This document shows, piece by piece, positions 3,853 to 61,100 of a stretch of 64,000 bases of DNA. This stretch comes from a virus, in the IMG/VR virus record IMGVR_UViG_3300044712_000083, positions 32,001 to 96,000 of that record; one strand, 5' to 3'. A model generated the notes under the pieces. That model was not told the DNA's origin. It saw only the letters and a program-made list of their open reading frames with translations, and ran no database searches. Made by a program: the position numbers and the translations under genes. The first letter of the stretch is position 1. Every line of letters begins with the position of its first letter.

Positions 3853-4150
3853 AGTTAGGATTTTCTCTGTGCCACTTCTTGACTGAAGCAACACCTTGTT
3901 TAACAGTTTTAGCTTTAGCTTTGTTAGTGAGATTGATTTTATCCCACTTACCTGCAGGAATACCAGCTGTATGATCTACAACTATATCTCCTTTATCACC
4001 TATCCCTCTATCGGTGGTCTTTTTAAATACTTTATGTGTTTGTCCGCCAACTTTAACAATAGCTTTACCACCGTTCTTTAGTGTAGAACCTTTAAACTGT
4101 CCTTTCTTTTTAATTAAAGGACCATCAGGAACGGGTGTAAACTTTTTCAT
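3815..4150 (-). CDS. Lys-rich hypothetical protein
   Basis: 111 aa, contains LKNGG motif; TAATG coupling at 4150. Confidence 0.7.
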   Translation of the reverse strand: MKKFTPVPDGPLIKKKGQFKGSTLKNGGKAIVKVGGQTHKVFKKTTDRGIGDKGDIVVDHTAGIPAGKWDKINLTNKAKAKTVKQGVASVKKWHRENPNYGKKSSMAKKRR

Positions 4151-4308
4151 TATTTACCAGCTTTACGAGCTCTGCCCATTGCTTTAAATGTCTTAGCTAA
4201 AGCTTTACGTTTTGGTGTACACGTAGCTTTAGTCATAGGAGTGCAGTATCCTTTATGTTTAGGATTGACTGCTCCTTGAATCCAGTTCTTCTTTGATGCT
4301 TTTGCCAT
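4150..4308 (-). CDS. Small basic protein, 52 aa (MAKASKKNWIQGAVNPKHKG...ALAKTFKAM), not in ORF track
   Basis: Hand translation: ATG at 4308, TAA at 4150-4152 overlapping the next ATG. Confidence 0.75.
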   Translation of the reverse strand: MAKASKKNWIQGAVNPKHKGYCTPMTKATCTPKRKALAKTFKAMGRARKAGK

Positions 4309-4495
4309 ACCTATGATAGGTTAAATTGGGTTTTACTATAATATCTTTATGAGTAAATTGCCAGAGCTCCCCAGTGGCATTGATGATTATCGTATAGATA
4401 GTGTCAGTCTCATGACCATAATCTAAAACCAACCAAACGATTCCATCACCTTTAGGTGTAGTGACTTCTAATCGATTGGCTGGTTCATAGATCAT
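4259..4495 (-). CDS. Hypothetical protein
   Basis: 78-aa ORF (VTTPKGDG...TGELW); its 3' end overlaps the next gene by 50 nt. Confidence 0.65.
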   Translation of the reverse strand: MIYEPANRLEVTTPKGDGIVWLVLDYGHETDTIYTIIINATGELWQFTHKDIIVKPNLTYHRYGKSIKEELDSRSSQS

Positions 4496-4542
4496 ATAGT
4501 TTGTTTTTAAAGTGCAGTTCTATGTCTGAGCATAGTTGGGCA

Positions 4543-4800
4543 CTATTGTTCTGGAACTTCTACAACAGAACCGTTTTCAACAGCTTCTGCTAATGTAGCT
4601 TCCATGATTTGACTAGCTTTTTCAGCTAATAAGATACGTTGTGCTTCTTCTGTAGACAAAATTGCACGTAATGAGTTTAAAAGAATACCAAAATCATTTC
4701 CTGATAATACAAATTCTGAGTCAATTGCCCAAGTGTATTTCTTATTTGGATCAAATGTTGGTGTTTCTTGAACTTCTGGTTCGTCTTTTACAATCTCCAT
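4543..4800 (-). CDS. Hypothetical acidic protein
   Basis: 85-aa ORF, in operon order, preceded by a candidate promoter. Confidence 0.7.
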   Translation of the reverse strand: MEIVKDEPEVQETPTFDPNKKYTWAIDSEFVLSGNDFGILLNSLRAILSTEEAQRILLAEKASQIMEATLAEAVENGSVVEVPEQ

Positions 4801-4824
4801 GTTTGTTATTTATTTTGGTTTGTG

Positions 4825-4855
4825 TAAAAGTAAATGGAATATTTTAGAATTGCAA
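4825..4855 (-). promoter_or_regulatory. Possible Bacteroidota-type promoter (variant)
   Basis: Minus strand TTG-N20-TACTTTTA, one mismatch to TAnnTTTG. Confidence 0.35.
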
Positions 4856-4857
4856 GA

Positions 4858-6216
4858 TTATTTAAAAACTTTTCTTTCATGCCACAACTGACCATAATGA
4901 GGCATGTTTCTATTATGGTATATAATACTAAAGTGATTATTTAATTTTTTTACAATCAGGGGTTTTTTACGTTTATCAACAATAAACATACCCATCATCT
5001 CAATATTATCCAATGTTTTAGTTTTACCAGATACACCGATGTAGATAGGAGATTTAGGATTATTATAAACAACCTCACAAAATGCACGTCCTAAAACACG
5101 AGGACCTGTTACATCTAATGTATTGAATCCATATAACTTATTATCAATATTATGTTTAGAAAGTTCTATAGCTCGTTTTACAATAACGTCTCCTGCTTTA
5201 CTACACATAAATGCATTATATAAAGCATTAGGAGCTTCAGGTGTATCCACTGCAAACACCCTATCCATGTCTTCAATAATCTCATCAAATGGTACTAATA
5301 TTACTTGAGAGAAATCATTGTAACATCCTCCATGTCTATGTAGAATCAAGTATCTCCAGAAATCAGCTTTGTATGCTGTAGGAACAAGACTATTATAAGT
5401 TGCTAAATATTCTTCACCATAGTAATCTCTGATGTAATTTTCACAATCTGCATCAGAGAAATAGAACAACTGATATCCAGGATTTTTTTCCATCATATCA
5501 TAATAGATGAGCTTCATCACATTAGGAAGAGCATCTTCAGACATAGGACCTGTTCTAAATATCCATTTAGGAATACCATCCTCTCTCCACTCTTTGCCTT
5601 TGAAATCTTGATATGTTCTTATAGGATTATACCATTGATTAGGTTTGTAGTATTGATTCATGTTAGTAAACTTTGGATAGATTCCATTGTTCTCTAATAT
5701 GTTAGCAACCATTACATCTTCTAATGGATACTGTTTACCATCTGCTTGAGCTATACATTCTATAGCTTTTCTAGAAACAATATAACTTAGTCCACCCTCA
5801 CACCAGTCAGAGATTTCACCTTCATAAGGTTTGTCATTCCAATAATGACCTTCACATCTTCCTATATGGTGATTACGATTAATCATGTGCTTACCAGCAA
5901 TCATTCCCATATAGTCTGTGAGTTCGAAATCAATCTCTTTAATAAGAGTCATATCCTCATCCAATTTATGGAAGTGAGTATATGAATCAAATACAGAGTT
6001 CTCACTGATAAACTTAAACATAGATGCTACCTTATCAGGAAGTCCGCAATAAGAGTCATCACAATTTAGTTTAATTACATCACCCTCATAAGAGTTATCT
6101 TCATATCCACCAACTACAACAACATAGTCAGTAAATGAGCTACTAACTTTATCTAGTGTAGCTTGTAGATTATCTTGGTGTGTGATAAATACTTTTAATA
6201 TCTTGTTGGTTTGCAT
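4858..6216 (-). CDS. Two-domain glycosyltransferase: GT31-like N-terminal domain plus GT32 (Och1/DXD)-like C-terminal domain
   Basis: N-terminal: DSYCGLPDK, KLDED, GGLSYIVSRKA, EDVMV. C-terminal: IPKWI, YFSDAD, ADFWRYLILHRHGGCYND, TGPRVL. Confidence 0.8.
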   Translation of the reverse strand: MQTNKILKVFITHQDNLQATLDKVSSSFTDYVVVVGGYEDNSYEGDVIKLNCDDSYCGLPDKVASMFKFISENSVFDSYTHFHKLDEDMTLIKEIDFELTDYMGMIAGKHMINRNHHIGRCEGHYWNDKPYEGEISDWCEGGLSYIVSRKAIECIAQADGKQYPLEDVMVANILENNGIYPKFTNMNQYYKPNQWYNPIRTYQDFKGKEWREDGIPKWIFRTGPMSEDALPNVMKLIYYDMMEKNPGYQLFYFSDADCENYIRDYYGEEYLATYNSLVPTAYKADFWRYLILHRHGGCYNDFSQVILVPFDEIIEDMDRVFAVDTPEAPNALYNAFMCSKAGDVIVKRAIELSKHNIDNKLYGFNTLDVTGPRVLGRAFCEVVYNNPKSPIYIGVSGKTKTLDNIEMMGMFIVDKRKKPLIVKKLNNHFSIIYHNRNMPHYGQLWHERKVFK

Positions 6217-6221
6217 ATAGT

Positions 6222-6503
6222 TTATAATGTTATCTCAAAAGAAATAACAGCATTGGTTTTAATACTCTTACTCATGTTCAACTTAATCTGAAACTGATTA
6301 TGAAACTTAAACAGCTCCTCTATCAAAGCATTTGTATACTTTGGTAGAGAAGGTGCAAGTCTAAACGTATAAGATTTAGGATGTTTAGTTATTTCCATAG
6401 TTGATAACTCATCTACAGAATCGATAACACCTTCTAGATGTGCAAAGTATAGCTCATCATTATGGGGCATTATCTTTGGAAAAAACTTTTTACTAATTTG
6501 CAT
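6222..6503 (-). CDS. Hypothetical protein
   Basis: 93-aa ORF coupled to the ferritin-like gene. Confidence 0.7.
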   Translation of the reverse strand: MQISKKFFPKIMPHNDELYFAHLEGVIDSVDELSTMEITKHPKSYTFRLAPSLPKYTNALIEELFKFHNQFQIKLNMSKSIKTNAVISFEITL

Positions 6504-6925
6504 TAGCTCAATGTTAGTAGGTATTTAGTTGTAGCTGCTTTTCCAGACAAGCTTTGAGCAACATTTTCAATGTCAGGCATATTGTTTGTAGCTCCGTAGT
6601 TCTGCAGTTGCTTAGCAAACGCCATTAACTCAGACACCACTTGCTCAGATACACCTGGAGCATAATCTTTCAATTGTCCTGGATTACCAATCTTAGCACG
6701 AGTACCTGAGTAGCCCATGATCTTCTCAATAATCTCATCTTTGAAATCAAAGACAGCATCGTACAATCCACCTAAAGCCTGGTGCTCTGCATAAGAACGT
6801 GTGGCCCAGTGCAAGTTATGTAGTTGTAGTTCAAAGTATGTTAGCTTTGTAGCAATAACATCAGGAGAAAGATCTCCTGACGCACTGCTTAGCATTTCTT
6901 GTGGGAATAATGATTTTAATGCCAT
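6503..6925 (-). CDS. Ferritin/Dps-like four-helix bundle protein (DUF5856-like)
   Basis: LHNLHW, YAEHQALGGLYD, DEIIE and terminal KYLLTL motifs. Confidence 0.8.
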   Translation of the reverse strand: MALKSLFPQEMLSSASGDLSPDVIATKLTYFELQLHNLHWATRSYAEHQALGGLYDAVFDFKDEIIEKIMGYSGTRAKIGNPGQLKDYAPGVSEQVVSELMAFAKQLQNYGATNNMPDIENVAQSLSGKAATTKYLLTLS

Positions 6926-6937
6926 GTTGTTTAAATA

Positions 6938-7402
6938 TTAGAAGCACTGAGTACAGCTGTAAATGTATGTAGCAGTTCCTCCAGTTGTATTCCAGTAGCA
7001 GTTAGAGTACTGCGGAGATTCCGAAAACAAAAGAGAAAAACCATAGACATTTATATTAAATGGAATAGTTAATGCAGCATCTTCCCAAAGAGTTGTCCAA
7101 TCTGCAAGAGTGCTACTTTGTGTATATCCAATAGAAGTCTGTGGGTTAATGTTATTACATGCATCTGAACTATTTGCATAACTTGTTATTACCCATGCTG
7201 TAGGTTGATTTCCACCACCACCACTGTGACTAGTTGATGTAGTTGTTGTACTAGGATTAGATCCTCTATAGTACATAGGAATTTCTCTCCAGTTACCATT
7301 CTTTGGTTTGGAGGTTCTAAACACAGGTGATCCTGATACTACACGACCTGTACCGTCAGTTTGCACATATGCTTTTAATTTTGGTGTTATATTATTTGCC
7401 AT
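6938..7402 (-). CDS. Putative virion accessory protein: MANN-type N-domain, Thr/Ser/Gly linker, Cys-containing C-domain
   Basis: N-terminus paralogous to 7424..7825 (KLKAYVQTDGTGRVVSGS...WREIP). Confidence 0.75.
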   Translation of the reverse strand: MANNITPKLKAYVQTDGTGRVVSGSPVFRTSKPKNGNWREIPMYYRGSNPSTTTTSTSHSGGGGNQPTAWVITSYANSSDACNNINPQTSIGYTQSSTLADWTTLWEDAALTIPFNINVYGFSLLFSESPQYSNCYWNTTGGTATYIYSCTQCF

Positions 7403-7423
7403 TTTCTATATCTTATTTAATTA

Positions 7424-7825
7424 TTATACACAGTTATAAACACTTAATACACCACCAGCATTAACTAAATACTTGGTCATAAGATCAGAAATAACCAATC
7501 CTGTTGTAACAGGTGTAGTTAGTGCACTATCAGTAAATACACTAATTCCTGCAGCTAATGTTGACGAAGATGAATAGAATGTTATGTTAGCTGAAATTGT
7601 AGTATTACATGCATCAGTTACATTATCCCAGTAGCCTTTAGTAAATGATGTAGGGGCTGCTGTGGTAGTTGTTGATGTAGTATCATTACAACAGTTATAA
7701 GTAGGAATTTCAAACCAACGTCCAACACGTGGTCTGTTCTTTCTCAGAATCAGGCTGCCTGCAACAACCCTTCCGCTACCATCGTAGCGAACAAATGCTT
7801 TTAATTTCTTCTGATTATTAGCCAT
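7424..7825 (-). CDS. Putative virion accessory protein: MANN-type N-domain, Thr linker, Cys-containing C-domain
   Basis: KLKAFVRYDGSGRVVAGS...WFEIP, then TTSTTTT, DAC...FTD...C. Confidence 0.75.
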   Translation of the reverse strand: MANNQKKLKAFVRYDGSGRVVAGSLILRKNRPRVGRWFEIPTYNCCNDTTSTTTTAAPTSFTKGYWDNVTDACNTTISANITFYSSSSTLAAGISVFTDSALTTPVTTGLVISDLMTKYLVNAGGVLSVYNCV

Positions 7826-7830
7826 TTTGA

Positions 7831-8850
7831 TTAATAGTTTAAATTGTATTTTTCTTTAAGTTCTATAAGTTTAGATACGTAGAAATGAGTACCAAGTCTC
7901 TTGCTACGCTCATCAGTATATACTGTCATCATATGAGGATCTGTAAAAGGATCTGTTCCACCGTGGTATTTACCTTTATAGAATGTTGGAACATCACCCA
8001 TGTAATCACCAACCATTCCAGCATTATGAAATATACCTAACTTATCAACTTTTTCTATAGAATCAGAAGCCCAAGAGAATTCCATTTCAGGAATCACCTT
8101 TGTATCATCTCCTCTACGCCATAAGTTCCATAGAACTGCCCACATATCTGCACACCAACTTTGAAAACCTTTATCTTCACTTTCAAAGAATTCTCGATTA
8201 ATACTCATTAAATAAACTCTAATAGAAATACAATCTTCCATTACATGTTTCCAGAAGTCTGCATCAATATTCTTTAATAGATATTGAGCTCCTCCTGAAT
8301 CATCATTAGATTTTTCAGCAATGAAACGTGTAATACCACAAAGATTTGTTGTCTCTTCTAGAATATCACGTTGTTTGTATTCTTCTAGTTTATCAGGTAG
8401 AACATCTCTTTCTTTACTATCAAAGTAACGAGCGTTGATGTAGCTATTAGTATCTGATAAATAGTGTACATCATCATCTACATACTGATCAATGTTGAAC
8501 TTCTCTGTAAAGTATACATCACAATCACAATAGAACAATGCTTTTTCTTTCATCTCAGGATGATCCTGGAAGTAACGCATTAATGTGTATGGACGTAAGA
8601 CAGAAACGTAGATTCCTAACATCTCACTGATTGTATTATCTTCATCCTTATAGAAAGCAAACTCTGCTTCTGGATATAAGTCTACAATCTTTTGCCATTT
8701 GTCATTAGGCTCTCTGAAATGTGGAGTAAAGACTAGCACAATTGCTTTGTCTGAATGTCCTAGCTTTCTTAATGATTCTAGCCATAAATGCACTTGCCAT
8801 GTAAAATATACATCGTCTGGCTGTGCACAGATAAATTTAAGATCCCTCAT
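7831..8850 (-). CDS. GT-A fold glycosyltransferase resembling plant SERGT (GT96) / HPAT (GT95) protein O-glycosyltransferases
   Basis: Ordered motifs YFTWQ, LRP, DCD (DxD), GG and WCADMW parallel the YFDWQ, NKP, DAD, GG and WISEMY motifs I recall for SERGT. Confidence 0.65.
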   Translation of the reverse strand: MRDLKFICAQPDDVYFTWQVHLWLESLRKLGHSDKAIVLVFTPHFREPNDKWQKIVDLYPEAEFAFYKDEDNTISEMLGIYVSVLRPYTLMRYFQDHPEMKEKALFYCDCDVYFTEKFNIDQYVDDDVHYLSDTNSYINARYFDSKERDVLPDKLEEYKQRDILEETTNLCGITRFIAEKSNDDSGGAQYLLKNIDADFWKHVMEDCISIRVYLMSINREFFESEDKGFQSWCADMWAVLWNLWRRGDDTKVIPEMEFSWASDSIEKVDKLGIFHNAGMVGDYMGDVPTFYKGKYHGGTDPFTDPHMMTVYTDERSKRLGTHFYVSKLIELKEKYNLNY

Positions 8851-8876
8851 GTAGTTAGTTGTTTTATTTTTTAATT

Positions 8877-9680
8877 TTATACAGATCCTACTTGTAATGA
8901 TCCTTCATATCCTACAAATGGATTAAGTGTAGAGTAATTAGCTCCGCTGTTTGTAGCATTATGACCATTACCACTATTGTCAGTTAATTCTGCAGTGATG
9001 TTTGTTCCTTGGAAGATTAATAATTTAGTAGTAGGTAGAGCAGCTAACGGTGCAGTTGGTACAGATCCACTAAATGGTGCTGTATACACTGCAGAATCTG
9101 TCCATCTAAAATTGCTTAGATATCCATTTATGTAAGAGTCTGGCTCATTACCATATCCAATGGTTAATGGTAAGCCTGAGCTAGATATAGATGTAGACCA
9201 TGATGATGTAGCTAATTCATAACCATCAATATACATATACACTAAACTACCATTACCTACAATAGCAATGTGATGCCAACCTCCTACTAAGTTGATTCCT
9301 AAGCTACCAGGAGTTCCTGCTATTAGTGGACTACCGTTGCCCCAGAAGTAAATAACAGAGGCACCACCTTCAATAGAAATAGCGTTAGGAGCAGGATATG
9401 CACCAAAGCTGTAGACACGTGGAAATCCATTTGGATTAGCCATGTTCAAGAAGAACTCAATTGTAAAGTCTCCTGAAATATCAAAGTCCGTACTAGCAGC
9501 GATGCCTATATTGCCAGGAGGCGTTGGAGCAATTGTAGTAGTTGTAGTAGTAGTAGGATTTACATACACAGGATTATTATACATCACACGTGTAAGACTC
9601 TCCAATTGCTTAGAGATGTCCCAAAGCAATGCTGCCTTAGTGCTAGATGGTTGTCCTATCTGTTTTGAAGGTATTGCCAT
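8877..9680 (-). CDS. MAIPSKQ-type N-domain, Thr7 linker and LamG/concanavalin A-like domain
   Basis: DFTIEF, WHHIAIV, MYIDG, LTIG and GYLSNFR are LamG-like jellyroll motifs. Confidence 0.8.
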   Translation of the reverse strand: MAIPSKQIGQPSSTKAALLWDISKQLESLTRVMYNNPVYVNPTTTTTTTIAPTPPGNIGIAASTDFDISGDFTIEFFLNMANPNGFPRVYSFGAYPAPNAISIEGGASVIYFWGNGSPLIAGTPGSLGINLVGGWHHIAIVGNGSLVYMYIDGYELATSSWSTSISSSGLPLTIGYGNEPDSYINGYLSNFRWTDSAVYTAPFSGSVPTAPLAALPTTKLLIFQGTNITAELTDNSGNGHNATNSGANYSTLNPFVGYEGSLQVGSV

Positions 9681-9684
9681 GATC

Positions 9685-10182
9685 TTAAGGAGTATATGAT
9701 GGTAATGTAAATAACTTTACTGTATATAACACTTGAAGTTGAGTAACGTCAATGTCTTCACCAAATGAAAAAGATACCAATTGATCTGTTACTGAAGTTT
9801 GAATACCAGCTGCTGATTCATTAGATCTATTATTCTCACCCTGTAAATTTTTCGAAAAAATTCCAGAGTTTGCACCAAACCACAAAGTGCCTGTAGAATT
9901 ACCAAATACAGGATTAGAAGTATTAGCAATCATTGAATATTCAATAATTCCTCCTGATGATTGAGATAAGTCTACTGTAAGAAATGGAGATCCATCCTGT
10001 AACCCAATCCAAGCTCCTGAGAATGTCTCAATCTTAGCACCAGCGTTATCACCACTTGATACGTTTAATAATGTCTTCTTACTATTATAAGTGACGCTTG
10101 TCAAACTCTCTAACTGCTTAGAGATTTGCCACAACAGATTTTCTTCTGTTCCCCAACCTACTTGTTTAGATGGTATAGCCAT
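9685..10182 (-). CDS. MAIPSKQ-type N-domain with a different C-terminal beta domain
   Basis: MAIPSKQVG...LLWQISKQLESLT is nearly identical to the N-terminus of 8877..9680. Confidence 0.75.
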   Translation of the reverse strand: MAIPSKQVGWGTEENLLWQISKQLESLTSVTYNSKKTLLNVSSGDNAGAKIETFSGAWIGLQDGSPFLTVDLSQSSGGIIEYSMIANTSNPVFGNSTGTLWFGANSGIFSKNLQGENNRSNESAAGIQTSVTDQLVSFSFGEDIDVTQLQVLYTVKLFTLPSYTP

Positions 10183-10201
10183 GATAAATTTATTTTATAT
10201 T

Positions 10202-11419
10202 TTAATTTGTAGTTATAAGTGCTCCTCTTGCTTGAAGAGTTGCTTTGTCTATTAATCCTTGTCCTGTTGGAGCTGCGTTTGTTCCACCATCTAGTACTAC
10301 ACTATGACTTGGTCCAAATAACGTTGTACCATTTGTACCATCTAAGCTTACAAGTAATGCAAGTATACCATTTACAGATGCCTCATCTAACGCATTAGAT
10401 GAAAAAACAATTTGAATATCGTCTATTCTTTTAATTGTACCAATTACACCTAGTGATAGTGATGTCAATAATGAATTATATGCTATTGAAATACCGCCAT
10501 AAATATTAACAACTGTTGGTGGAACTGTAATACTTGTTACTAATGTATTTTCTATTATAAATGAATTAATAGCAGTTACATTAGGAAGATCAATTGTTAA
10601 TGTTGAAATCTCATAATTTAGCTCAACACCAAAAGTAGTTACTAGAGGGAAAGATAAAGTTGTTCCTTTATATCCTATAAGTGTTAAATTAGTAACATTA
10701 GGAAAATTAGTTGAGGTTAAATCTGTAATAGGTACATTACTATTATCCATAACTAATCTAACTGTAGAAGCATCTGATGATACTGTTGTGAACAAAGGTG
10801 CATTAGCAATATCAAGATCAAATACTGTATCAGATAAAACAACACTTGTTAATGCTGGTGCATCAGTAATTACAAGAAGTGAGGTATATGATGGTAATGA
10901 TAAAGATTGTAGACTAGTAGCACCTTGAATAATACGATTTTGACCTCCTGCACTAACCAAATTAGGAGCACTAATTGTAGTGAGAGAAGTTAAATTATAA
11001 AATTCAAAATTACTAGCAATTGTAACAACTGATGGTAAATTTATTGTAGTTAAATTTAAATAATCAGTAAGAGAAATACTTCCTAATAAAGTTATTCCTG
11101 GGAATGTAATAGAACTTACGGTTTCTGCAGCACCATTACCAAGACTACCAGCATCTCCAGTAATATATGGAAGTGTACGACTCTGAGCAATTTTAGTTCC
11201 TCCTGTTGAAGCAGAATCTGCTGCAGTAATCTGAGTTAGAATATCTACAGTTAATGTATTGATAGCCCCCACTGTACTAAACGTAACTGTAGGATCCGCA
11301 GCAGGAATACCAGAAGAAATTATAGTGTCAACTACAGAATCAAGACTAAGCTCACCCTTTACAGGTTTGTCAGTGTTCTTCCATAAACCACTCTTAATAT
11401 AAATATTAGACTTAGCCAT
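10202..11419 (-). CDS. Leucine-rich repeat / L-domain-like solenoid protein, probably structural or adhesion-related
   Basis: Repeats such as LTTINLPSVVTI, LTTISAPNLVS, LQSLSLPS, LTIDLPNVTAI. Confidence 0.7.
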   Translation of the reverse strand: MAKSNIYIKSGLWKNTDKPVKGELSLDSVVDTIISSGIPAADPTVTFSTVGAINTLTVDILTQITAADSASTGGTKIAQSRTLPYITGDAGSLGNGAAETVSSITFPGITLLGSISLTDYLNLTTINLPSVVTIASNFEFYNLTSLTTISAPNLVSAGGQNRIIQGATSLQSLSLPSYTSLLVITDAPALTSVVLSDTVFDLDIANAPLFTTVSSDASTVRLVMDNSNVPITDLTSTNFPNVTNLTLIGYKGTTLSFPLVTTFGVELNYEISTLTIDLPNVTAINSFIIENTLVTSITVPPTVVNIYGGISIAYNSLLTSLSLGVIGTIKRIDDIQIVFSSNALDEASVNGILALLVSLDGTNGTTLFGPSHSVVLDGGTNAAPTGQGLIDKATLQARGALITTN

Positions 11420-11441
11420 GATAAATTTTTGTTAAATATTA

Positions 11442-11471
11442 CAAATATATGTTACTTTAAATGATATGCAA
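11442..11471 (-). promoter_or_regulatory. Bacteroidota sigma-A-type promoter
   Basis: Minus strand TTG (11471-11469), N19, TATATTTG (11449-11442); 22 nt separate it from the ATG at 11419. Confidence 0.75.
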
Positions 11472-11528
11472 TAGAATACTATAAATTCAGATTAACGTAT
11501 TTGATTACACCATCTCTAATTAAATTAG

Positions 11529-12719
11529 TTATAGATTGATCTTGGTACCGATCATACTCATGAATGTTACTGGTACGCTTGTGTTTGTACTCAAACTAAC
11601 CTTCAATCCACAGTTGAATCTAAACCTTTTACTCAATGCTACATCAAATCCAGAGCCTGTTAATATACCCACATCCTTTGTCAGTGAGTTAGAAACATAG
11701 ATATCTGGAGACATAGATAAGTATTTATTCACTTTGAATGGTCTAGTGTAAAATGCCATCAAGCCATTACCAAACTCTCCTGTGTATGTTAATGCGTAGT
11801 TGAAACCTGTAACTCCTTTACCTATTGGTTTAATAACAGCTGCTGTAGCAAACGCTATTGTGTTACCTTGTAGATAAACTCCTGTTAAACCGTAGTTGAA
11901 AATAGCCTTACCCATCTTTGTGTATCTTGCAGACAGAGCAAACTGGTTAAAGCTACTCCATATCATAGATGTAAGTCCGTAAGACACGTTACCAAGCAGT
12001 GAGGACTGTGATGCCCCCAGTGATATGATAGCACTAAAAGGACTATCAGGTCCGCCAAGCATAGTAAGGTCAGAGCTGTAAACAATAGGATTAAGCTTAG
12101 CAGCAGCTTTGTTGGAAGCCTTAGAAGACTTCTTATCATCACTCTTTTTCTCTTTAGACTCACTTTTACTTTCTGATTTCTCTTCAGATTTAGATGAACT
12201 TTCTTCACTTTTAGACGAACTTTCACTAGAACTACTTGATTCTGAGCTACTTGAGCTTGAAGAATTAGACGAACTATTAGACGAACTAGTAGTAGGTGCA
12301 GGAGTAGAAGCTACTGCTGATGAAGTGGCAGCACTTGTAGCAGATGCTGTAGCACTACTAGTTGCAGCAGCTGTGGCAGCTTGTGTTGCTTGGGCAGTTG
12401 CTTGCTGTGTAGCTTGTTGTGTTGCCTGAGCAACAGCTTGGGTTACAGCCTGAGTAATTATTACGGTTGTAGTTGTAGTTTGTGGACAAGGCGTAGAGTT
12501 AATCATATTAATCCACGCTGTTAAAGCTCCTGTTGTTATGTCATCAGCTGTAACAACTCTAGCTTGTCCTCTATAAACTATAGTAACTGTCCCATTATTT
12601 AGTGGAACAGTTACTGTTAGTACTTGCCCAGAACACGGATCTACATACACTTGTGTTAGAACTTGAGCACTCGCTAAGTTAAAACACAATAACAGTATGA
12701 AGGTCCATATCCATTTCAC
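11529..12719 (-). CDS. Exported protein: signal peptide, small Cys domain, Thr/Ala/Ser/Glu/Lys low-complexity linker, beta-barrel-like C-terminus
   Basis: MKWIWTFILLLCFNLASAQ signal; long low-complexity tract; amphipathic strands to the C-terminus. Confidence 0.7.
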   Translation of the reverse strand: MKWIWTFILLLCFNLASAQVLTQVYVDPCSGQVLTVTVPLNNGTVTIVYRGQARVVTADDITTGALTAWINMINSTPCPQTTTTTVIITQAVTQAVAQATQQATQQATAQATQAATAAATSSATASATSAATSSAVASTPAPTTSSSNSSSNSSSSSSSESSSSSESSSKSEESSSKSEEKSESKSESKEKKSDDKKSSKASNKAAAKLNPIVYSSDLTMLGGPDSPFSAIISLGASQSSLLGNVSYGLTSMIWSSFNQFALSARYTKMGKAIFNYGLTGVYLQGNTIAFATAAVIKPIGKGVTGFNYALTYTGEFGNGLMAFYTRPFKVNKYLSMSPDIYVSNSLTKDVGILTGSGFDVALSKRFRFNCGLKVSLSTNTSVPVTFMSMIGTKINL

Positions 12720-13057
12720 TATTTAGGATCAATCTTAATAGTAGAGTCGATAGCTACCTGAGAACGTTTCAATTGTAACATCTCTTCTTGGTAGTCCCAC
12801 TTAGCTTCAAGAGCTTTGATTTTTTGGCGAGCCTTAATCTTAGCACGCATCTTGAAAATCTTTCCTTCAATCTTGGAAATCTTTACATAACGTGCAGCAG
12901 GATCTTCTTCTGTCAACTTAACAATCTCCAACTTGTGTTCTAAGTTAGAGATACGAGTTTGATACATAGGAATCTTAGCTCCTTGGTAGATTCTGTATGC
13001 AGGATATGCACTCATCACTAGTGCAATAGAACCTGCAATAATTAATTTTTCTAACAT
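12719..13057 (-). CDS. Membrane-anchored coiled-coil protein
   Basis: N-terminal hydrophobic segment followed by a helical, charged region. Confidence 0.65.
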   Translation of the reverse strand: MLEKLIIAGSIALVMSAYPAYRIYQGAKIPMYQTRISNLEHKLEIVKLTEEDPAARYVKISKIEGKIFKMRAKIKARQKIKALEAKWDYQEEMLQLKRSQVAIDSTIKIDPK

Positions 13058-13065
13058 GGTATTGG

Positions 13066-13791
13066 TTATTTAGTGAAAATCTTTTTCTTAATCATGCGTA
13101 CCACAATTTTACTAGTAGCATCTTCAAGTGCTTTCTTAGTCGTTGTACCAATTGTGGATTGATTAAACTTAACATCAGTAAAGTTAGCATCGTTCATTAA
13201 AGTTGCTTCTCTGGTAGTCTGAGCTGTACCCAAACCTGAACCAGTGAAGTACGCTCCAGTCTCAGCGTCTACAAATCTAACTTGTAAACCTAGACGAGTT
13301 ACTACAGTTTGTTTAACTCCGTTCTTCAAAGATACGGATTCATCTTCAGAAACGGAAAAATCATACACCTCAATATATACAAAATATTTTGCAAGTCTGA
13401 TTTTACCTCTTCCATCAAGTTTGTCTTCAGTGATCCCCTTTTGAGATGCCTGAAACTGCTTGACCATTCGGTTCTTGATCTCAGCTTTATCTTCAGTAAA
13501 TATAAATCGGTTGGTTTCTTCTAGGTATTCTACAACTATATTAGTGACACCAAGACCCACTCTTTTGTCTTTGAGTTCTGGATAAGAAGCATAGACATCT
13601 TCATTGATACCAAGAGATAAGAGTTGAATAGGAATGGTTGGGCCGTCATAATCCATCAATGAGTCTATGTTAATCTTCTTTTCAAAGGAAGCTGTGTAGC
13701 TTTCTGTCTTAGTTGTAGCAATCTGACCACTAACTTTGTACGTTAGTGATAAGCTCAATAATAAACTGAATAATAAGCTTAATCTCTTCAT
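13066..13791 (-). CDS. CsgG/HfaB-like exported protein
   Basis: Signal peptide; LEETNRFIFTE...AKYFVYIEVYDFS...LQVRFVDAETG...G.G...KALEDA matches the CsgG-like pattern. Confidence 0.7.
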   Translation of the reverse strand: MKRLSLLFSLLLSLSLTYKVSGQIATTKTESYTASFEKKINIDSLMDYDGPTIPIQLLSLGINEDVYASYPELKDKRVGLGVTNIVVEYLEETNRFIFTEDKAEIKNRMVKQFQASQKGITEDKLDGRGKIRLAKYFVYIEVYDFSVSEDESVSLKNGVKQTVVTRLGLQVRFVDAETGAYFTGSGLGTAQTTREATLMNDANFTDVKFNQSTIGTTTKKALEDATSKIVVRMIKKKIFTK

Positions 13792-13819
13792 ATAGTTTTC
13801 TCATTAAGAGGGGGTTTCG

Positions 13820-14131
13820 TTACCACTGTGGCTCCTCTTTCAGAGCCTCTTTTTCTGTTTTCTTTTTAGGAGCAGCCTCCTTTTCTTTAATAATAACTGT
13901 CTTACCAGCAGGAGCTGCTGATTGTTGTTGAGAGTTATTAGTAGTGATATTGATTACAGGAGCAGGTGCTGATACAGCAGCAGGTTGAGCAGCCTCAGCA
14001 GCTTTCTCTTCTCCACCACCAAATAACTGTGAACCTAAATAAGCTCCACCAGCTGTTACAATTGTTCCTACAGTTCCTACTATAGTCTTGACCAATCCTG
14101 ACCAAGTACCATCATTGTGTTCGTCTGACAT
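13820..14131 (-). CDS. Small membrane protein with Ala/Pro/Gln-rich tail
   Basis: Hydrophobic Gly/Thr segment at about aa 10-36. Confidence 0.65.
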   Translation of the reverse strand: MSDEHNDGTWSGLVKTIVGTVGTIVTAGGAYLGSQLFGGGEEKAAEAAQPAAVSAPAPVINITTNNSQQQSAAPAGKTVIIKEKEAAPKKKTEKEALKEEPQW

Positions 14132-14487
14132 TATCGTTTAATAATTAAAGGTTTTTTAATAGATACACCAGCTACATCAGTTAATGTGATGTCATATAAT
14201 CCATCAGGTAGATCTGCAAGATCGTACACTCTGGTTACAATCTCTTCCTCAGCTGTCAAAGGAAGAGTTTTAGTTGGATCAGATTGACCAAACTCATATA
14301 CTTGTACAGAATACTTTGCTCCTGTAGTTACATTATACATGACTGTAATTTTTGTTCCTTGTGCCATTACACTAAGGATATTTGTTTTATTTGTAGGATT
14401 AGCACCTAGGTTTATCTCAGGTGCAGGCAATTCTACATCAGCACACGCTGTGAGAAACAGCGATGCGATCATTATTAATTTTTTCAT
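14131..14487 (-). CDS. Lipoprotein with an Ig-like domain resembling a T9SS C-terminal sorting domain
   Basis: Lipobox LTAC; C-terminus YDLADLPDGLYDITL...KKPLIIKR. Confidence 0.65.
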   Translation of the reverse strand: MKKLIMIASLFLTACADVELPAPEINLGANPTNKTNILSVMAQGTKITVMYNVTTGAKYSVQVYEFGQSDPTKTLPLTAEEEIVTRVYDLADLPDGLYDITLTDVAGVSIKKPLIIKR

Positions 14488-14499
14488 TATAGAACTAAG

Positions 14500-16230
14500 T
14501 TAGAAGTTGTTGTATCCTGTAAGTTTAATCTTGTCTGTATTCAGGCTAATAGATAACTGTACACCTTTAGAGTCAGCAGCATCCATGATAGGGCTAACCT
14601 TGATGAATGTATTGATGTCCAATCCATTCTGTAATGCTGTAAAGCGTAACTTGAATGGAATAATATCACCTTCTACAGGAGCATTCAATTGCTGATCTAA
14701 TGCACCAAACTTGATATAACCTGTACCTTTGTTAGCAAACACATACCATTTGTTAGGTAGCTCATTCTTTAACTCTTCAAACTTAATCTTGCTCTCATCA
14801 TAAGAGAACTGGAACTGTAGAGCACCTACCTTGTTTCCATTTGTGGAAACTTTTACAGGGATCTCAATAGAGTTAGATGTCACTACAGTGTTTGTTAAGT
14901 TAACTGTAATAGGAGCTACAGCAATTGTTCTATTAACTACACCTGCACCAGCTTGTGTAACAGATGATGAGTGTGACTTATTGATGTCACCAAACAATAG
15001 ATAACTAATGTTGATAGTCTCAGGATTACCCATTTGAGGTAATGTAGTATATGAATAGAATGTAGGTCCTACAGGAAAGTTTGTAATCCAATCAGCTGGT
15101 GTAGCATTATTGTAAGAAGACTTCTTGAATGTCATCATGCTCATCCAACCATTAGATCCTACAGTGTAACCTGCTGGTAGTACAGTGAGCTGATCTACGT
15201 TTACAACTTGTGCAAACAAACGAGTCAAGTCACCACCATCTAATGCACCACTTCTATTAACATCAGCAGCTTTATATCCCGCACCACTAGTGATAACTGT
15301 GTTCTTGAATGTACCATCTAAGTTCTGTGAAATGAATTCAGACTGAGCAGCTGTGTAGTCAGAGGTTGTAATAGCAGAGTTGTATAAGTTTTGGATATGA
15401 TCCATGTTATACATAGCCAAGATCTTGTACTGTGTACTAGGAGTTAATAAACTATCAATAACATTTACAGTTCCTGTAGCTGTTACATCAAACAAAGGTC
15501 CTTGGTTAGTTGTAGCATTAATGAACGCTACCTTCATTTTAGTAGGATCAATGTTAGGACTCAAGTCAACAGTAGCCTTTACATACTTAGTAGCATCAGG
15601 ATTCTGTGTAATAACTGTAGTTAGAGGAATCTCCATCAATGTAGAACCAGAAGAACCATTCTGATTGAATGACGCAGCAAAGTTCATCTTGATAGGATCC
15701 CACGAGTTACCTACAGCTGTAGGCTTTAATCTAAATCGTAGAACTAATAAACGATCATAGTTACCGTAAGGTAGAGGATTAGGAGATGCCCAGTTTAAAT
15801 ACGCACGAACAATAGTCTTAGGTCCCCCTTGTGTAAATGTGTAGTTAGAATACTGATAGTTAATATTACCATTAGTAGTTGTGTTCTGTTGCGTAGAGTT
15901 CCAATTATAACCAGGATATTGATAGAATGTAAAATCAATTGCGGAACCTGCAGGAAGAACGCCACCATTACCACCAGTGCCAGTGTGGTTAATAGAAATT
16001 AATTCAAACGCAGCATTGTTGTATTCAAAATCAAAGTAGAGTGCACGTGATGTTGTGTTACCATTTCCGTTCATTTGAACAATAACATCAAACTCATCAC
16101 CTTTGTCAATCACACCACCACCAATATCAAATTTAGTAGAATCAGAAGCAAGCTTTAATTTAACATCTTGAGCATAAGAATGTCCAGTTAATAGCGCAAA
16201 AAACTGGACAATTAGGAGGAGTTTTTTCAT
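14500..16230 (-). CDS. Exported cohesin-like / dockerin-like / cohesin-like protein
   Basis: Signal peptide SYA-Q; GDEFDVIV...YFDFEYNNAAFELISI; EF-hand-like ADVNRSGALDGGD and GDINKS; IEIPVKV...GALQFQFSYDESKIKF. Confidence 0.7.
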   Translation of the reverse strand: MKKLLLIVQFFALLTGHSYAQDVKLKLASDSTKFDIGGGVIDKGDEFDVIVQMNGNGNTTSRALYFDFEYNNAAFELISINHTGTGGNGGVLPAGSAIDFTFYQYPGYNWNSTQQNTTTNGNINYQYSNYTFTQGGPKTIVRAYLNWASPNPLPYGNYDRLLVLRFRLKPTAVGNSWDPIKMNFAASFNQNGSSGSTLMEIPLTTVITQNPDATKYVKATVDLSPNIDPTKMKVAFINATTNQGPLFDVTATGTVNVIDSLLTPSTQYKILAMYNMDHIQNLYNSAITTSDYTAAQSEFISQNLDGTFKNTVITSGAGYKAADVNRSGALDGGDLTRLFAQVVNVDQLTVLPAGYTVGSNGWMSMMTFKKSSYNNATPADWITNFPVGPTFYSYTTLPQMGNPETINISYLLFGDINKSHSSSVTQAGAGVVNRTIAVAPITVNLTNTVVTSNSIEIPVKVSTNGNKVGALQFQFSYDESKIKFEELKNELPNKWYVFANKGTGYIKFGALDQQLNAPVEGDIIPFKLRFTALQNGLDINTFIKVSPIMDAADSKGVQLSISLNTDKIKLTGYNNF

Positions 16231-16745
16231 TATAAGAGTTTATTAATCAGGGTGTTACAAGACTTTTTCAAAGCGGCACTTAGGTTGGTTTGATTAAATT
16301 TGCCTCCATCATCAATGACCAGTGCAGCCATTGATACTTCTTCAGCAGACTCTTCTACTATTACTGTCTTTTTTACTTTATTATCTTCAATCAACTGACC
16401 TCTCATACGTATTACTACAGCATCAGAGTTGCGATGGAATACAGATAAATTAGTTTGCGTTTTGAGAACATCTAAGTACAGTAGTTCAATCTTTATTTCT
16501 TTACTAGCATCATCAGAGATATCATATCCTTCTTCTTGTAAGAACTCCTCCATAATGTTCTTAACTCCAAACGCTAAGTTTCTATTACCAGCCATCTGTC
16601 CCATTACAATTCTATTGTTAACAGGTGCAACCTTAATAGGATTGTCTGGTTTAGTGAAGTGTTTAAATATGTATACAGCCTGGATAGCCAGTGATGATCC
16701 TACAATCATGGATACGATAGCGTAGGTAATAGTAAATAGTTTCAT
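16230..16745 (-). CDS. Signal-anchored alpha/beta protein, remotely CsgG/LpoB-like
   Basis: N-terminal TM segment; FGVKNIMEEFL and FNQTNLSAALKK resemble LGVTNIVVEYL and FNQSTIGTTTKK of 13066..13791. Confidence 0.6.
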   Translation of the reverse strand: MKLFTITYAIVSMIVGSSLAIQAVYIFKHFTKPDNPIKVAPVNNRIVMGQMAGNRNLAFGVKNIMEEFLQEEGYDISDDASKEIKIELLYLDVLKTQTNLSVFHRNSDAVVIRMRGQLIEDNKVKKTVIVEESAEEVSMAALVIDDGGKFNQTNLSAALKKSCNTLINKLL

Positions 16746-55176: not shown

Positions 55177-58100
55177 TTAGCAGATTCCATCTGATATCAC
55201 TGTACCACCTGTATTCAATTGAATATATCCGTTGTCAGTGTTGTAATATCCAGATCCTAATGTAGATGATCCAATTGAATCTGTGTAGATTGTTTTACCT
55301 ATACTAGGAACACCACCTGTACAGTATGCTAATTGATCTACAGCTCTTGTACAAACATTGACAGGCGTTCCAACTGTACTGATATAGAATGGATCATATG
55401 AAGGAGGTACGTATCCACATGTAGGGCTATTAACTTCAACTACTTGTTGATTTCTTGTAGCACTTGTACATGAGTTAACTTCTTGGCTCCATAGAGTAAA
55501 TCCTACACAGTAGTATTGTAAATCCCAAGTACCACAGCTTTCGCTCACTGTACCTGTATCAATTGTTCTTGTAGTTCCTGCAGCACAAGGATTAGTTTGT
55601 ACTTGATCTTGACGTAATGTACATGATCCTGTTATGCAATATGCATTTCCTGAATTAACCCAAACTGGAGTAGTGTCAGGATAAGAGTTAGAAGGATTAG
55701 TTGATTGCCATGTTCCACCTACTAAATAGATGTTAGCTCCTGTGTAACAAGGATTGCTATTAACATAAACTGGAGTTGAATTAACTGTACCACTTGAACA
55801 TGTGTAGTATGTACCTACTTGACCTCCTTGGGTTTGAGTGTTACTAGCACCGCAAGCACCACTACATGTTACATCGTAAGTGTTACCTGTTGGATTACCA
55901 TTACAGTAGTATTTCTCAATGAAACGCTGTGTTGTTCCTAAACAAATGTAATCTGTGTAGTAAGTTCCGTTACATGCTTCATTACACTGACAAGAGCAAT
56001 TACTAATTACATAAGATGAACTTTCTCCACAGTCATTGATTGTAGGTTGAATCAATGCGTTTCCACTACATATTGGAGATCCCGAAGGTACATAATTTTG
56101 TCTATTATACAATGTAAATGTTAAATTATTACCAGCAGTTAATGTAACAGTTGATCCACTGCCGTATGACGATCCATTAAGTATAGCTGAACAAACATAG
56201 AAACCATCATAGTCTACACGAATTGTAGTTCCTACAGGATAACTTCTAGAACCTCCATCCCAACTAGGATCTGCAGTACCATTGATATAAGGTGTGTAAG
56301 AACTAACATTCAATCCATTTAACGGATTCAATGTTACTGTTACAGGAGCAATAGTAGTACTTGTAGTAGTAGTACTGCTTGGAGGTACAGTGGTACTAGT
56401 TGATGTAGTAGATGTTGAGCTAGTACTTGTTGTTGTACTTGTACTAACAGGATTCATATAAAGTGTAATAGGATCACTAAGGTTAGTACATGCTGCACTA
56501 CCAACATATGCTTGAATAAAGTTACCAGTAGGAGTACCATCCCAATCAACATTAATTGTCTGACTTCCTGCAGAATTAAATGTTAATGATATAGGAGTTC
56601 TAGTTCCACCAGCAATTGAAGTACCGACTACAATTGGATATGAAGTAGAGCTAGGAGCACTCATTGTAACTGTGTAAACAGCAGATTCAAATGGTGCTAC
56701 TGTTGTAGGTCCTGTGAATGTCCAATCACCATTTACAATCGGCACACATGCAAGCGTTGTACTTGTACTAGTTGTAGAAGTAGAAGTAGAAGTAGACGTA
56801 CTTGTTGAAGTAGATGTACTAGATGTAGATGTTGAAGTAGATGTTGTAGGTCCTACATATTCTGTTGTTGTACTAGTAGTAGTTGAAGTAGGTCCTGAGG
56901 TAGTACTAGTAGTGGTACTTGTAGTTGGAGTTAGAGTACTTGTAGTACTTGTAGTTGGAACTATTGTAGTAGTAGTACTAGTTGTAGGAGCAATAGTAGT
57001 AGATGTGCTTGTAGTTGAAGTAGTAGATGTACTTGATGTTGACGTAGATGTTGAAGTCGAAGTAGATGTACTAGTTGAACTTGTAGAACTTGTTGTAGAA
57101 GTTGTTGTTGGAGTGTAGTTTATAGCATCAATAGTAAACACACAACCTTCTTTAACTGCATTTCCTACCAACTGACAAGGAGTTACATATGACGCACTAC
57201 CATTCAATGAACAATAAACATCTATTGGTCCAAATGTAGTTGAAGTAGTTGTAGTAGATGTACCAAGAATTGTACTAGTTGTAGTAGTAGTTGATGGTCC
57301 TACATATGCAGTGGTAGTTGTTGTAGTAGTTAATCCTGATGCAATAGCAGAAAAATCACAACCTTGATTGTTTCCAGAATAGAAGAAGTTATTCTCAGCA
57401 ATGTAATAGTTAGGAATATAACTATGGAAAGAGATCCAACTCTTTGTATTCATGTTGTAAGACAATGTCCATGACTTATTACAGAAGTATGTAATGTCAT
57501 TTAACTGAACAACCTCTTTAATTGTAGTATTTCCTGCAATAGGATAGATGTAATATTCTTTATAGTAACCTACTTGTGCAGGATCTGTACCATAGAAAAT
57601 CTTACCAACCCAATTTGGTTGTGGGATGTAGTCAAGTTTAGTGATAATGATTCTATCAAATTTAGAATCATACACACCTGTTAAACCAACCTTAGTATAA
57701 TTGTTATCTACATCAGCTTCAGGGAAGTAACGTAAGATTTCAAATGCTAAATGGTCAGTCATAAAACGATTGACACCTGAACCAAATGCAGATAAGTCCA
57801 CAACTTGTGTTCCTGTTACTAAGAATATCTGTCCACGTTTAGCATCAATTGTTACTTGTCCATTAGGAATCTTTAGCAACATCTTGTGTTGAGATCCTAC
57901 ATATCCTAAATCTGTCTCAGCAAAATCAATTGGAGGAGCAGATCTAAACAATGTAGAATTACCAATATAAGCAGCTTGTGGATTGCTTGTATCGATTGTA
58001 AGCATTGTGTTGTATAACAATGACTTATTCTCAAAACGAGCTAAGATAGCCTTGTTTTGGATACCATCTAATGATGTAAGCTTTCCGTATGTTTGAGGGA

Positions 58101-61100
58101 AATCAAAGAAAGAAGCAGGTCTATACAATAACCAGTTATTCACCTTACTTGTAGAAGATGGATCTTGTTGATCTGAATATATAGCTCTAAACGGAAACTC
58201 TTTTTCACAAGCACTATTTGTCCAATTTAAAGGAAGGTGTGAGAAGAAGTTCTCTGTATTCTGTTTAGAATAACTTAAGTTGTAGTAGTATGTATTATCT
58301 ACTGCAATAGGTACTCTAACTTGTTGCAACCAATCATCAGGAATACCAGAACTTACACGAGGGTAGAAGTTACCTTCATTACCATTATATGCTTGACGCA
58401 AGTCTAAGTTGATAGAACTCTCACAATAGAAGTAAGGAATTCCATACGCAAACATATACATCTTACCATCGTAGAATGATTGAGTATTACTTAAACTTGT
58501 AGCTCCATCATAATTAGTACCACTAGGTGGGGTTGGTGTAGTTGGTGTACTTGTATATATAGGATCAGAAGGGCAATCAAAACAATGTGCTTTGATTGAA
58601 ATAAAATTTGTTAATGTATCACTTCCTAAAACAATATCACTCAAAACAGAACGAGATGAATGCCAGTATTGAGGATAAGCAATATTACCTAATTGATCAT
58701 AATTAATATCTGAATCATCTGGAGCTAATACCCTATTGTCAATAAAGAATGGAAGTTTAGTTTTAAATGCAAACTTACCAATGAATGTATCACCACCAAA
58801 TATAGTTTTAACTCCTGTAGGAGAATCTCTATCTACTTGGAATCCTGTATCAATTGTTTCGTATGTATAGAGTTGTCCCCATTGATTACGAACAACATTC
58901 TTAATTGATGCATAGTAAGATACAACCTTAATAGATTGTAACTCTTCAGGAACTGCACATTTCTTTTTCTGTGATAATGTAAATCTAGAATCATCAGAGA
59001 TTTTACCAGCAATAGAATCTATATCATTTGGAAATCTAAGAGGAATAACTGTAGTAGTGTTATCACTACGCTTTTCTATAGTTTTTAAATAAACAGATGA
59101 CTCACGTTGGAAGTTATTAAGATCCCAAGTATCTCCTACTGATTGTACGCCTGGATATACATATTGATACTTATCAAGTTGTCTTTGCTTAACACCATCA
59201 CCGTTCTGAATATTTCCAAAATAGTCATAACTTGCAATTGAGTTGAATGAGTATGCAAAGTTTTTTCTAGTAATTCCACTAATATAAATCTGTAGATAAG
59301 ATTGGTATGCAGCAAATACAGCATTCATATCTCCATCTGCTATAGCATAGCTAGAAACTAATGCTTTTTGTTGAATAGCTTTTGTAATTAGCTTATAACT
59401 TGCATTACTTTTAACAGGAACAAAATGTGCTTTTCCTGCTCCATACATTACATTCTCAAGCTTCAATACATCTCCTAATGTAGGTTGTCCAAACGATGTT
59501 TCAGGAGAGTTAAATACTTGTCTGTATTTAGTTTCATTATTAATCTGACCACCTGGCTCATTGTTTACAGTAAAACCAGTGAATTTTTTAGGATAACATT
59601 CAGGATTAAATGAATCTGTAGATGTTGTTATATAATTCTTTGATCCACTTACATATGTTAACTTTGCACCAATTGGAAATCCAGGAATTTCAATATATTC
59701 AACAAGAACAGTTTTTGGAGAATCTGCTACAGTAACTGTTATTTCTTTAGTAGCTCCATCTGCATACGGATCTCCATATGTAAATTTAGTAGAATCTAAA
59801 GCTCCGTCTTGATTTACAACAATAGTAACGACAGTTGTATATTTCCCAATGTATGGACTAAATATGTTACATACTAATCCACCTGTTTTTTGTGGAAATG
59901 TAGTTGAGCAAACATATTGTGGCTCCGTTTGAGCAACAATATTAATTGTTTTTACTTCATTAGTAAAACAGTCATTATAAATTAATGAGCCAGGAGATGT
60001 AACACCAGTAATCTTATACTTCTCCGATTGACCACTATATGCATTGTTTTGCTTAAGTAAGAACGGATCTGTGTTAAGATCGTTATATGGATAGTTAGGA
60101 TAATAGTAGTATGTAGGATTAGGAGAACTTGATTCATCTCTTGTATATCTACCTACGTTTCTTAAAATACCCTTTGCAACAATAGATTTGTTTGTATTAC
60201 GATTACCACGGACAATCTTATATCCAGCAATTTCGTTTCTTTGTTCAGGAGTTAAGTATGTCTGAATTAATGATTCAATCTGTGCTGTGTCAACTCTAAT
60301 ACCAAGTGGGTAGATAGCATTAGCAGATTTCATCTCCACTTGATACTTACCTGCAACTTCGACAGGAGTAGCACTTTCAAATGCAGGACTTACTAAAATA
60401 TCAGGAAACTTGTGATGACGAATTGGTCCTGTTAATCCTGCTTCTGTAAATACTGGTCCTTTATATTCTTCAGTTGATTGCCAGAATGCAAAATCACCAT
60501 ATTGATATGGTGTTGCACCATTAATTGTTGGTCCTGTAGCAGCAACCCCATTACCTGCAGTGTTATACACTTTCCAACGATCAAGTGGTTGCAATGTATC
60601 ATCCTCAGCAATATAGTCTGGATTACTTTTATCAACTTTAGGATTTATATCTGAATCTTTAATTGCTCTTCCTGGAATATGGAAACCATCTGTCTGCTTA
60701 CCATTCTTTAACAAGAATACAATCTCAAATGCATATACCTCATCACGTAGATAACCACGTAAATTAAGTGCATTTAATTCATCTGCATAGTTTTGCCCTG
60801 CTGCCATTTTGTATGACTGCCATTGCAATGTAATTCTAGCAGCAACTTTTTGATAGTCAACTCTATTATTAGATTTTAATCCATCCCAAATCAAAACATC
60901 CTGTACAGAAGTTACATCATTGGCAATATCATAGTATGGATACTTCTCAAAGATTTCTTCAATAGCTACAGCAATTGGAGTTTTGTTTTGTCCAGAATAG
61001 ATGACAGTATTTTTACCAGTAGTTGCACCAGTTTCAGCAGGAATTTTATCAATTAAGTATGTACCTAATAACTCAGCAGAAGTTGCATTATTAACTGTTT

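Follow-up and report, generated by a model that had tools for sequence, protein, structure and literature searches.

To our knowledge, experimental demonstrations of phage-encoded virion glycosylation are limited to a few mycobacteriophages, in which it alters recognition by antibodies. According to the accounts of this work (Freeman et al. 2023) in PMC12619734 and PMC12363180, phages Che8, Corndog and Myrna use their own enzymes to glycosylate the C-termini of the proteins that form the capsid and the tail tube. Here we describe a gene cluster that may encode an analogous process, located in a stretch of 64,000 nucleotides (the window, positions 32001-96000) of the virus record IMGVR_UViG_3300044712_000083, which is complete (114,191 bp) and carries direct terminal repeats. 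The cluster contains the gene for a 339-residue glycosyltransferase of the phrog_4417 family, flanked by genes for proteins with runs of threonine (Thr). From gene arrangement and sequence comparison we consider it probable that this enzyme glycosylates the Thr tracts of phage proteins. Virion glycosylation as such is known already; new here would be its execution by a different enzyme family with a portable poly-Thr tag. The searchable literature, in which few subscription journals are covered, returned no paper on the phrog_4417 family or on a phage pairing of poly-Thr and transferase. It also contained no description of such a system in crAss-like phages, in agreement with what an earlier examination of the bare DNA (the sequence-only reading) had stated.

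The likeness to the mycobacteriophage system lies in phage transferases that act in the cytoplasm on the C-termini of the phage's own capsid and tail-tube proteins and yield a glycan-covered particle, a course of events that is proposed here from genes alone. The hosts are different (Actinobacteria for the mycobacteriophages, Bacteroidota and Firmicutes for phages with phrog_4417-family enzymes), and so is the gene order: the transferase genes of Che8 lie far from its structural genes, whereas the present enzyme adjoins its presumed acceptors. Alignment of the family profile with Che8 gp108, gp109 and gp110 by hhalign gave probabilities of 0.04-0.8%, which amounts to no detectable relation, and no Thr run was found at the C-termini of the Che8 capsid and tail-tube proteins. 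Because the Che8 enzymes are unrelated and the Che8 ends contain no Thr run, the process would be analogous, with a different enzyme and a different tag. Giant virus enzymes such as PBCV-1 A64R, whose PDB entry title gives it a part in glycosylating the PBCV-1 major capsid, and the mimivirus transferases differ from the present case in linkage chemistry and acceptors, in their eukaryotic hosts and in having no poly-Thr tag.

The enzyme family and Thr tracts are genomically coupled: in this phage and in roughly twenty unrelated phage lineages, the enzyme is in every case encoded beside proteins with Thr runs. In 80 IMG/VR loci of the close clade, whose enzymes are 65-83% identical to the window enzyme, the transferase gene is directly followed in every case by a gene of the same type as its downstream neighbor in the window (family A, see below). 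Thr/serine (Ser) runs occur in 135 of the 532 same-strand open reading frames that lie no more than 2 kb from the enzyme (25%) versus 38 of 1355 further away (2.8%). For a blind scan, a stretch of eight Thr codons in direct succession was the sole criterion by which new IMG/VR loci were picked (117, 0.96 Mb); control loci came from a matched scan for an eight-residue acidic tract (117 loci, 1.03 Mb). The enzyme was present in 6/117 of the Thr-codon loci and in 0/117 of the controls (Fisher p = 0.03), and in all six the Thr-tract gene has the enzyme gene immediately downstream. Apart from one pair with 60% identity, identities among these six enzymes, and between them and the window enzyme, amount to only 28-40%. 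A search for related IMG/VR loci with two distant family members gave no loci. The expectation of the sequence-only reading that enzyme and Thr tracts would co-occur across related genomes is thus borne out.

The same association is found in annotated phages. The enzyme is encoded in 77 GenBank phage records from at least 13 lineages, and in each of the 13 lineages inspected a protein whose tail is rich in Thr is encoded next to the enzyme gene or one to two genes away. These partners are mostly major tail or capsid proteins. The tailed partner is the major tail protein in phiFL1A, phiCTP1, 1706, PMBT8 and TPWB06, a tail protein in VPE25 and bIL285, and both capsid and tail proteins in iLp84. 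Phages vB-SscS-F1 and LpeD encode short poly-Thr proteins, the Herelleviridae SAC12B and LP65 have tails made of TTVKP or TETQ repeats, and Chryseobacterium phage MA9V-3 encodes two proteins with long Thr/Ser tracts. The MA9V-3 genome contains the enzyme and 15 runs of six Thr codons (ACN x6), all on the coding strand; four crAss-like relatives, Flavobacterium phage FpV4, Cellulophaga phage phi17:2, Leptolyngbya phage Lbo-JY46 and csAssE-Sib (together 510 kb), lack the enzyme and have no such run either. A second comparison involves the tail-tube proteins (major tail proteins) of Streptococcus phages 315.6 and Javan273, Lactobacillus phage phiJL-1 and Bacillus phage SPP1, which are 40-57% identical to that of phiFL1A. 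At the C-terminus of their capsid protein, 315.6 and Javan273 have a motif in common with phiFL1A gp45 as well. None of these four phages has Thr runs at the protein ends, the enzyme, or a Thr-codon run in its genome, and their chaperone genes follow directly after the tail-tube gene. In phiFL1A the capsid and tail-tube proteins carry a Thr-rich extension of 20-26 residues, and the gene behind that of the tail tube is an insertion that encodes the enzyme.

Two details of these phages concern the tag itself. In Lactococcus phage 1706 one and the same ending, nine to ten Thr residues and then HHD, is found on the major tail protein and on a 686-residue "head maturation protease" (locus L323, 2468-4528; probably a protease fused to the capsid protein), and bIL285 has nine Thr residues followed by RHD; these matching ends suggest that the tag was copied as a unit. 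The poly-Thr protein encoded just upstream of the transferase in Lactobacillus phage LpeD (locus L324, 5584-5988) is annotated as "major tail protein; GP2_EHV1B glycoprotein gp2", presumably because it matches the herpesvirus mucin-like glycoprotein through composition alone.

On balance we favor the view that the phrog_4417 transferase and an appendable poly-Thr tag form a portable two-part system, gained and lost together by phages of hosts from Firmicutes to Bacteroidota, in which the tag could be attached to particle proteins of every kind, whether of capsid, tail tube, muzzle or fibril. Such a system would constitute a second route to virion glycosylation, mechanistically distinct from the mycobacteriophage one and far more widespread.

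The phage that contains the window is assigned to the crAss-like phages by its muzzle and tail ring proteins. A protein of 2244 residues (55177..61911) matches the Pfam family crAss_MUZ (E = 7e-37), which identifies it as a member of the Crassvirus muzzle family, and the adjoining genes encode tail ring proteins (CrAss_Ring_1, E = 3e-9; CrAss_Ring_2, E = 2e-11 to 3e-15). The genes for the transferase and its Thr-linker neighbors are all on the minus strand and tightly packed, with intergenic gaps of 4-26 nucleotides. Runs of at least four Thr residues occur in 5 of the 36 proteins of the window, and three of these five flank the 339-residue enzyme. The relevant features are the following:

4858..6216, minus strand: two-domain glycosyltransferase, 452 residues; GT31-like Galactosyl_T domain (42-179) and GT32-like DXD domain (234-315)
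6938..7402, minus strand: family-A paralogue, 154 residues, candidate acceptor; anchor, STTTTSTS at residues 51-58 (7229..7252), different C-terminal domain
7424..7825, minus strand: family-A protein, 133 residues, candidate acceptor; anchor 1-47, TTSTTTT at residues 49-55 (7661..7681), Cys-bounded C-terminal domain
7831..8850, minus strand: glycosyltransferase, 339 residues; GT-A fold (predicted), DxD motif D109/D111, phrog_4417
8877..9680, minus strand: family-B protein, 267 residues, candidate acceptor; anchor of 37 residues, seven Thr (T7) at residues 43-49 (9534..9554), Laminin_G_3 domain (63-197)
9685..10182, minus strand: family-B paralogue, 165 residues; family-B anchor, no Thr tract
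56347..57330, minus strand: Ser/Thr-rich stalk of the crAss muzzle protein 55177..61911; residues 1528-1855, 57% Ser plus Thr

The three Thr tracts named by the sequence-only reading are therefore present. Its figure of about 120 residues for the muzzle stalk was too low: the stalk measures approximately 328 residues, and its Ser plus Thr content compares with 17% in the rest of the protein. The T7 run of the family-B protein did not occur once in 20,000 shuffles of its own sequence. The runs of four Thr in the two small family-A proteins were reached in about 4% of shuffles each and are weak evidence taken alone, but the conservation of the linker in one and the same place among relatives adds to their weight. 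The tracts are encoded by a mixture of the synonymous codons ACT, ACA and ACC, which indicates that they are not simple DNA repeats.

The two family-A proteins are 40% identical over 114 aligned residues (E = 5e-19), most strongly in the N-terminal anchor. Proteins of this family consist of a conserved N-terminal domain of 47 residues, the Thr linker and a variable C-terminal domain of about 70 residues that is bounded by cysteines; some relatives contain two C-terminal domains, each preceded by its own Thr linker. In an AlphaFold2 model of the 133-residue protein (predicted local distance difference test score, pLDDT, of 78) the linker is disordered (pLDDT <50 at residues 47-54) and lies between two folded parts. 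A fold search of BFVD with this model returned only uncharacterised viral proteins, with an annotated ClpP-like protease among the weak matches. The conserved cysteines could form a disulfide outside the cell. Many related loci (L013-L020, L028, L040, L047, L048, L067) contain family-A genes of 58-78 residues that comprise the anchor and a terminal poly-Thr run with no head domain; these may be genuine mini-proteins, truncated forms or the result of frameshifts. The family-B proteins are a paralogue pair with a common N-terminal anchor. The larger one carries a ConA-like lectin domain (Laminin_G_3), and the smaller one, which has the same anchor with no Thr tract, shows that the Thr linker is an optional module.

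Two further stalked proteins are encoded just outside the window, at positions 97474-98088 and 98114-98752 of the record (locus L332, 2474-3088 and 3114-3752). These paralogues of 204 and 212 residues are 46% identical over the first 67 residues and continue in a long Ser/Thr stalk after this common N-terminal domain. Their genes sit in the head gene region between genes that match PHROG families of virion structural proteins. We regard them as likely further acceptors, perhaps head fibers. No signal peptide is predicted in the enzyme or in any candidate acceptor, as the sequence-only reading had noted for the substrates, and the reaction would therefore take place in the cytoplasm.

The enzyme contains all of the motifs that had been read from its sequence, namely YFTWQ (residues 15-19), LRP (85-87), DCD (109-111), GG (186-187) and WCADMW (231-236). 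Residues D109 and D111 are invariant in an alignment of 60 family members and in 78 further members, and W18, R86, G186, G187 and D235 are at least 90% conserved in the alignment. The gene is present in a single copy in the 114-kb genome. Its product matches phrog_4417, a family with unassigned function, with E = 1.3e-51 (residues 4-305 on positions 1-271 of the 293-position profile), and the family comprises 760 clusters at 50% identity. A Pfam scan of the enzyme gave no family at E <= 1, Glyco_transf_8 included, a scan of NCBIfam gave no match, and searches of PDB sequences with both the enzyme sequence and the family profile returned only noise. An AlphaFold2 model built on 60 diverse relatives (pLDDT 97.5) was compared with known structures by way of Foldseek and VIA-align. 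The predicted structure has a Rossmann-like GT-A fold, and its nearest matches are retaining enzymes of glycosyltransferase (GT) type GT8, WbbM among them. Glycogenin is the top match, and other solved structures include LgtC, Skp1 AgtA, GlyE, xyloside xylosyltransferase and the catalytic domain of UGGT. Fold and DxD motif class the enzyme, as modeled, as a metal-dependent GT-A nucleotide-sugar glycosyltransferase, which probably retains the anomeric configuration. The relation to the GT8-type enzymes is one of common fold with no sequence-level match: structural alignments show approximately 9-11% identity, and the phage enzyme has about 80-100 extra residues.

The sequence-only reading had compared the enzyme to two plant families, the hydroxyproline (Hyp) arabinosyltransferases (HPAT, GT95) and the peptidyl-serine galactosyltransferases (SGT1/SERGT1, GT96), and the resemblance would be that these enzymes put sugar directly on hydroxyl side chains in low-complexity extended regions. 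This label could not be established. The HPAT model PF23452 (cut-off 23.9 bits) matches neither the enzyme nor anything else in the whole phage genome or in control genomes, and none of 78 further relatives reaches it at E <= 0.001. In the structural comparison that had been proposed as a check, the best solved folds were of GT8 type, several of which glycosylate proteins. We know of no solved structure of GT95 or GT96. For GT95, PMC8476585 gives a prediction of GT-A likeness, and PMC8012813 states a relationship to GT96. The similarity stays a weak lead: HPAT is the top-ranked, sub-threshold Pfam family among relatives (2/60 reach E = 0.012), and in a protein-atlas look-up, again a lead only, 11 of the 30 nearest clusters are labeled HPAT and in one nearby cluster 10% of the members bear this label. 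The plant enzymes are anchored in membranes and have Hyp and Ser of Golgi-resident extensins as acceptors, whereas the phage enzyme is soluble and paired with Thr/Ser runs rather than with proline or Hyp.

Relatives of the enzyme are fused to GT2, GT6, GT7C, GT29, GT32 and methyltransferase domains, and the fusions to transferase domains point to a family of glycan-assembly enzymes. Fusions of single family members to a GT29 sialyltransferase domain and to a radical-SAM/SPASM domain hint at elaborate or unusual glycans in some lineages. A complex prediction for the enzyme and its 133-residue neighbor returned no answer (score 0.00) and speaks neither for nor against a contact.

These observations are consistent with the following mechanism. 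A soluble cytoplasmic enzyme would use a nucleotide-sugar donor of the host and transfer the sugar to hydroxyls of Thr (and Ser) runs in proteins of the phage itself, either ahead of particle assembly or in its course. Candidate acceptors are the disordered Thr linkers of the small anchor-linker-head proteins encoded on either side of the enzyme, the stalked head-module proteins just outside the window and, as the largest, the Ser/Thr stalk of about 330 residues on the muzzle, a virion tail protein by family. In this phage the 452-residue two-domain transferase might extend the glycan, and the particle surface would end up with mucin-like stalks covered in glycan. We infer acceptor, donor, linkage and the benefit to the phage, which may be stiff and protease-resistant stalks, shielding or adhesion. 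The part of the sequence-only reading that has the enzyme act on the phage's own Thr stalks is supported by adjacency, by the blind scan and by joint presence and absence, while its assignment to the SERGT/HPAT enzymes is not. Its description of these stalked proteins as virion proteins applies to the muzzle, through the crAss_MUZ family, and is presumptive for the small neighbors.

Several points weigh against this proposal. Adjacency and co-occurrence are no proof of an enzyme-substrate relation, and with p = 0.03 the blind scan is only modestly significant, its weight coming from the perfect adjacency. As far as we found, the literature reports no glycan, mass shift or enzyme activity for any family member. 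Some enzymes with GT8-like folds have lipooligosaccharide as their target. The small anchor-linker-head proteins are putative virion components, the Thr linker is absent from 4 of 20 distinct family-A proteins, and a fold search with the 133-residue model found no PDB match, so that its C-terminal domain is left with no solved structural relative.

Among other explanations, one in which the first sugar on the Thr tracts comes from a host enzyme or from a different phage enzyme, and the GT8-like enzyme then extends the chain, is unlikely. GlyE (GT8) acts after GtfA/B in the glycosylation of serine-rich repeat proteins of Gram-positive bacteria, and the fold of the phage enzyme resembles those of GlyE, AgtA and xyloside xylosyltransferase, each of which lengthens glycans already linked to protein; the frequent fusion to other transferase domains would also suit such a role. 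On the other hand, the best-matching fold is that of glycogenin, which is itself an initiator of a chain on a protein, and in the small phages phiFL1A, bIL285, 1706 and phiCTP1 the enzyme is the only transferase in the structural module. A chain-starting host enzyme would have to be common to hosts from Firmicutes to Bacteroidota, and we know of no cytoplasmic Thr-glycosylating enzyme that is. We also doubt that the small anchor-linker-head proteins, once glycosylated, are released or cell-associated as adhesins or decoys and form no virion coat. Families A and B do lack matches to known virion proteins, and their genes adjoin those of secreted or envelope-type proteins (11529..16745), but neither family has a signal peptide, the largest stalk is found on the muzzle, and the tagged proteins of Gram-positive phages are capsid and tail-tube subunits. 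That the enzyme modifies a non-protein target (a host surface glycan for superinfection exclusion, or phage DNA) next to Thr tracts that are plain flexible linkers is very improbable: the account in PMC12619734 names DNA or host O-antigen as the target of most characterised phage transferases, LgtC-type GT8 enzymes act on lipooligosaccharide, and the enzyme gene lies near recombination and replication genes in three Herelleviridae genomes, but in two independent phage groups the enzyme and Thr tracts are present or absent jointly, and the perfect adjacency in the blind scan with none in the controls, the placement of the gene inside head or tail morphogenesis modules and the lack of a membrane segment argue against it as well.

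If the enzyme does glycosylate Thr tracts as a portable system, crAss-like phages would have a mucin-like, glycan-covered tail muzzle and fibrils, and many well-studied dairy, enterococcal, staphylococcal and clostridial phages, as well as environmental crAss-like ones, would make glycoprotein particles. This would bear on phage stability, on adhesion to mucus or polysaccharide, on immune recognition in phage therapy, and on the reading of cryo-electron microscopy maps and of anomalies in gel electrophoresis (SDS-PAGE) and mass spectrometry. The compact pair of enzyme and tag might also be usable for protein glycosylation in the bacterial cytoplasm. The hypothesis is directly testable in the cultured phages phiFL1A, VPE25, 1706, bIL285, LP65 and MA9V-3.

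The remaining genes of the neighborhood vary in how closely they accompany the enzyme. Among the 60 related loci long enough on the downstream side of the enzyme, only 4 have that of the 452-residue transferase; it stands outside the conserved core, and may have a role in glycan elongation. A scan of 4000..13500 for sigma-70 promoters and terminators gave background levels only, and this type of scan is ill-suited to phages of Bacteroidota. The transferase and family-A pair is followed in 76 of the 80 related loci by a gene for a DUF5856 protein (6503-6925 in the window; Dps-like, PHROG "starvation-inducible transcriptional regulator") and in 71 of the 80 by that of a 93-residue protein (6222-6503). 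On the other side of the cluster, a protein of 396 residues (11529-12719) has a signal peptide, a run of five Thr and a long stretch rich in Ser, glutamate and lysine; since it would be exported, it is an unlikely substrate for a cytoplasmic enzyme. A cohesin-domain protein (14500-16230) is encoded nearby.

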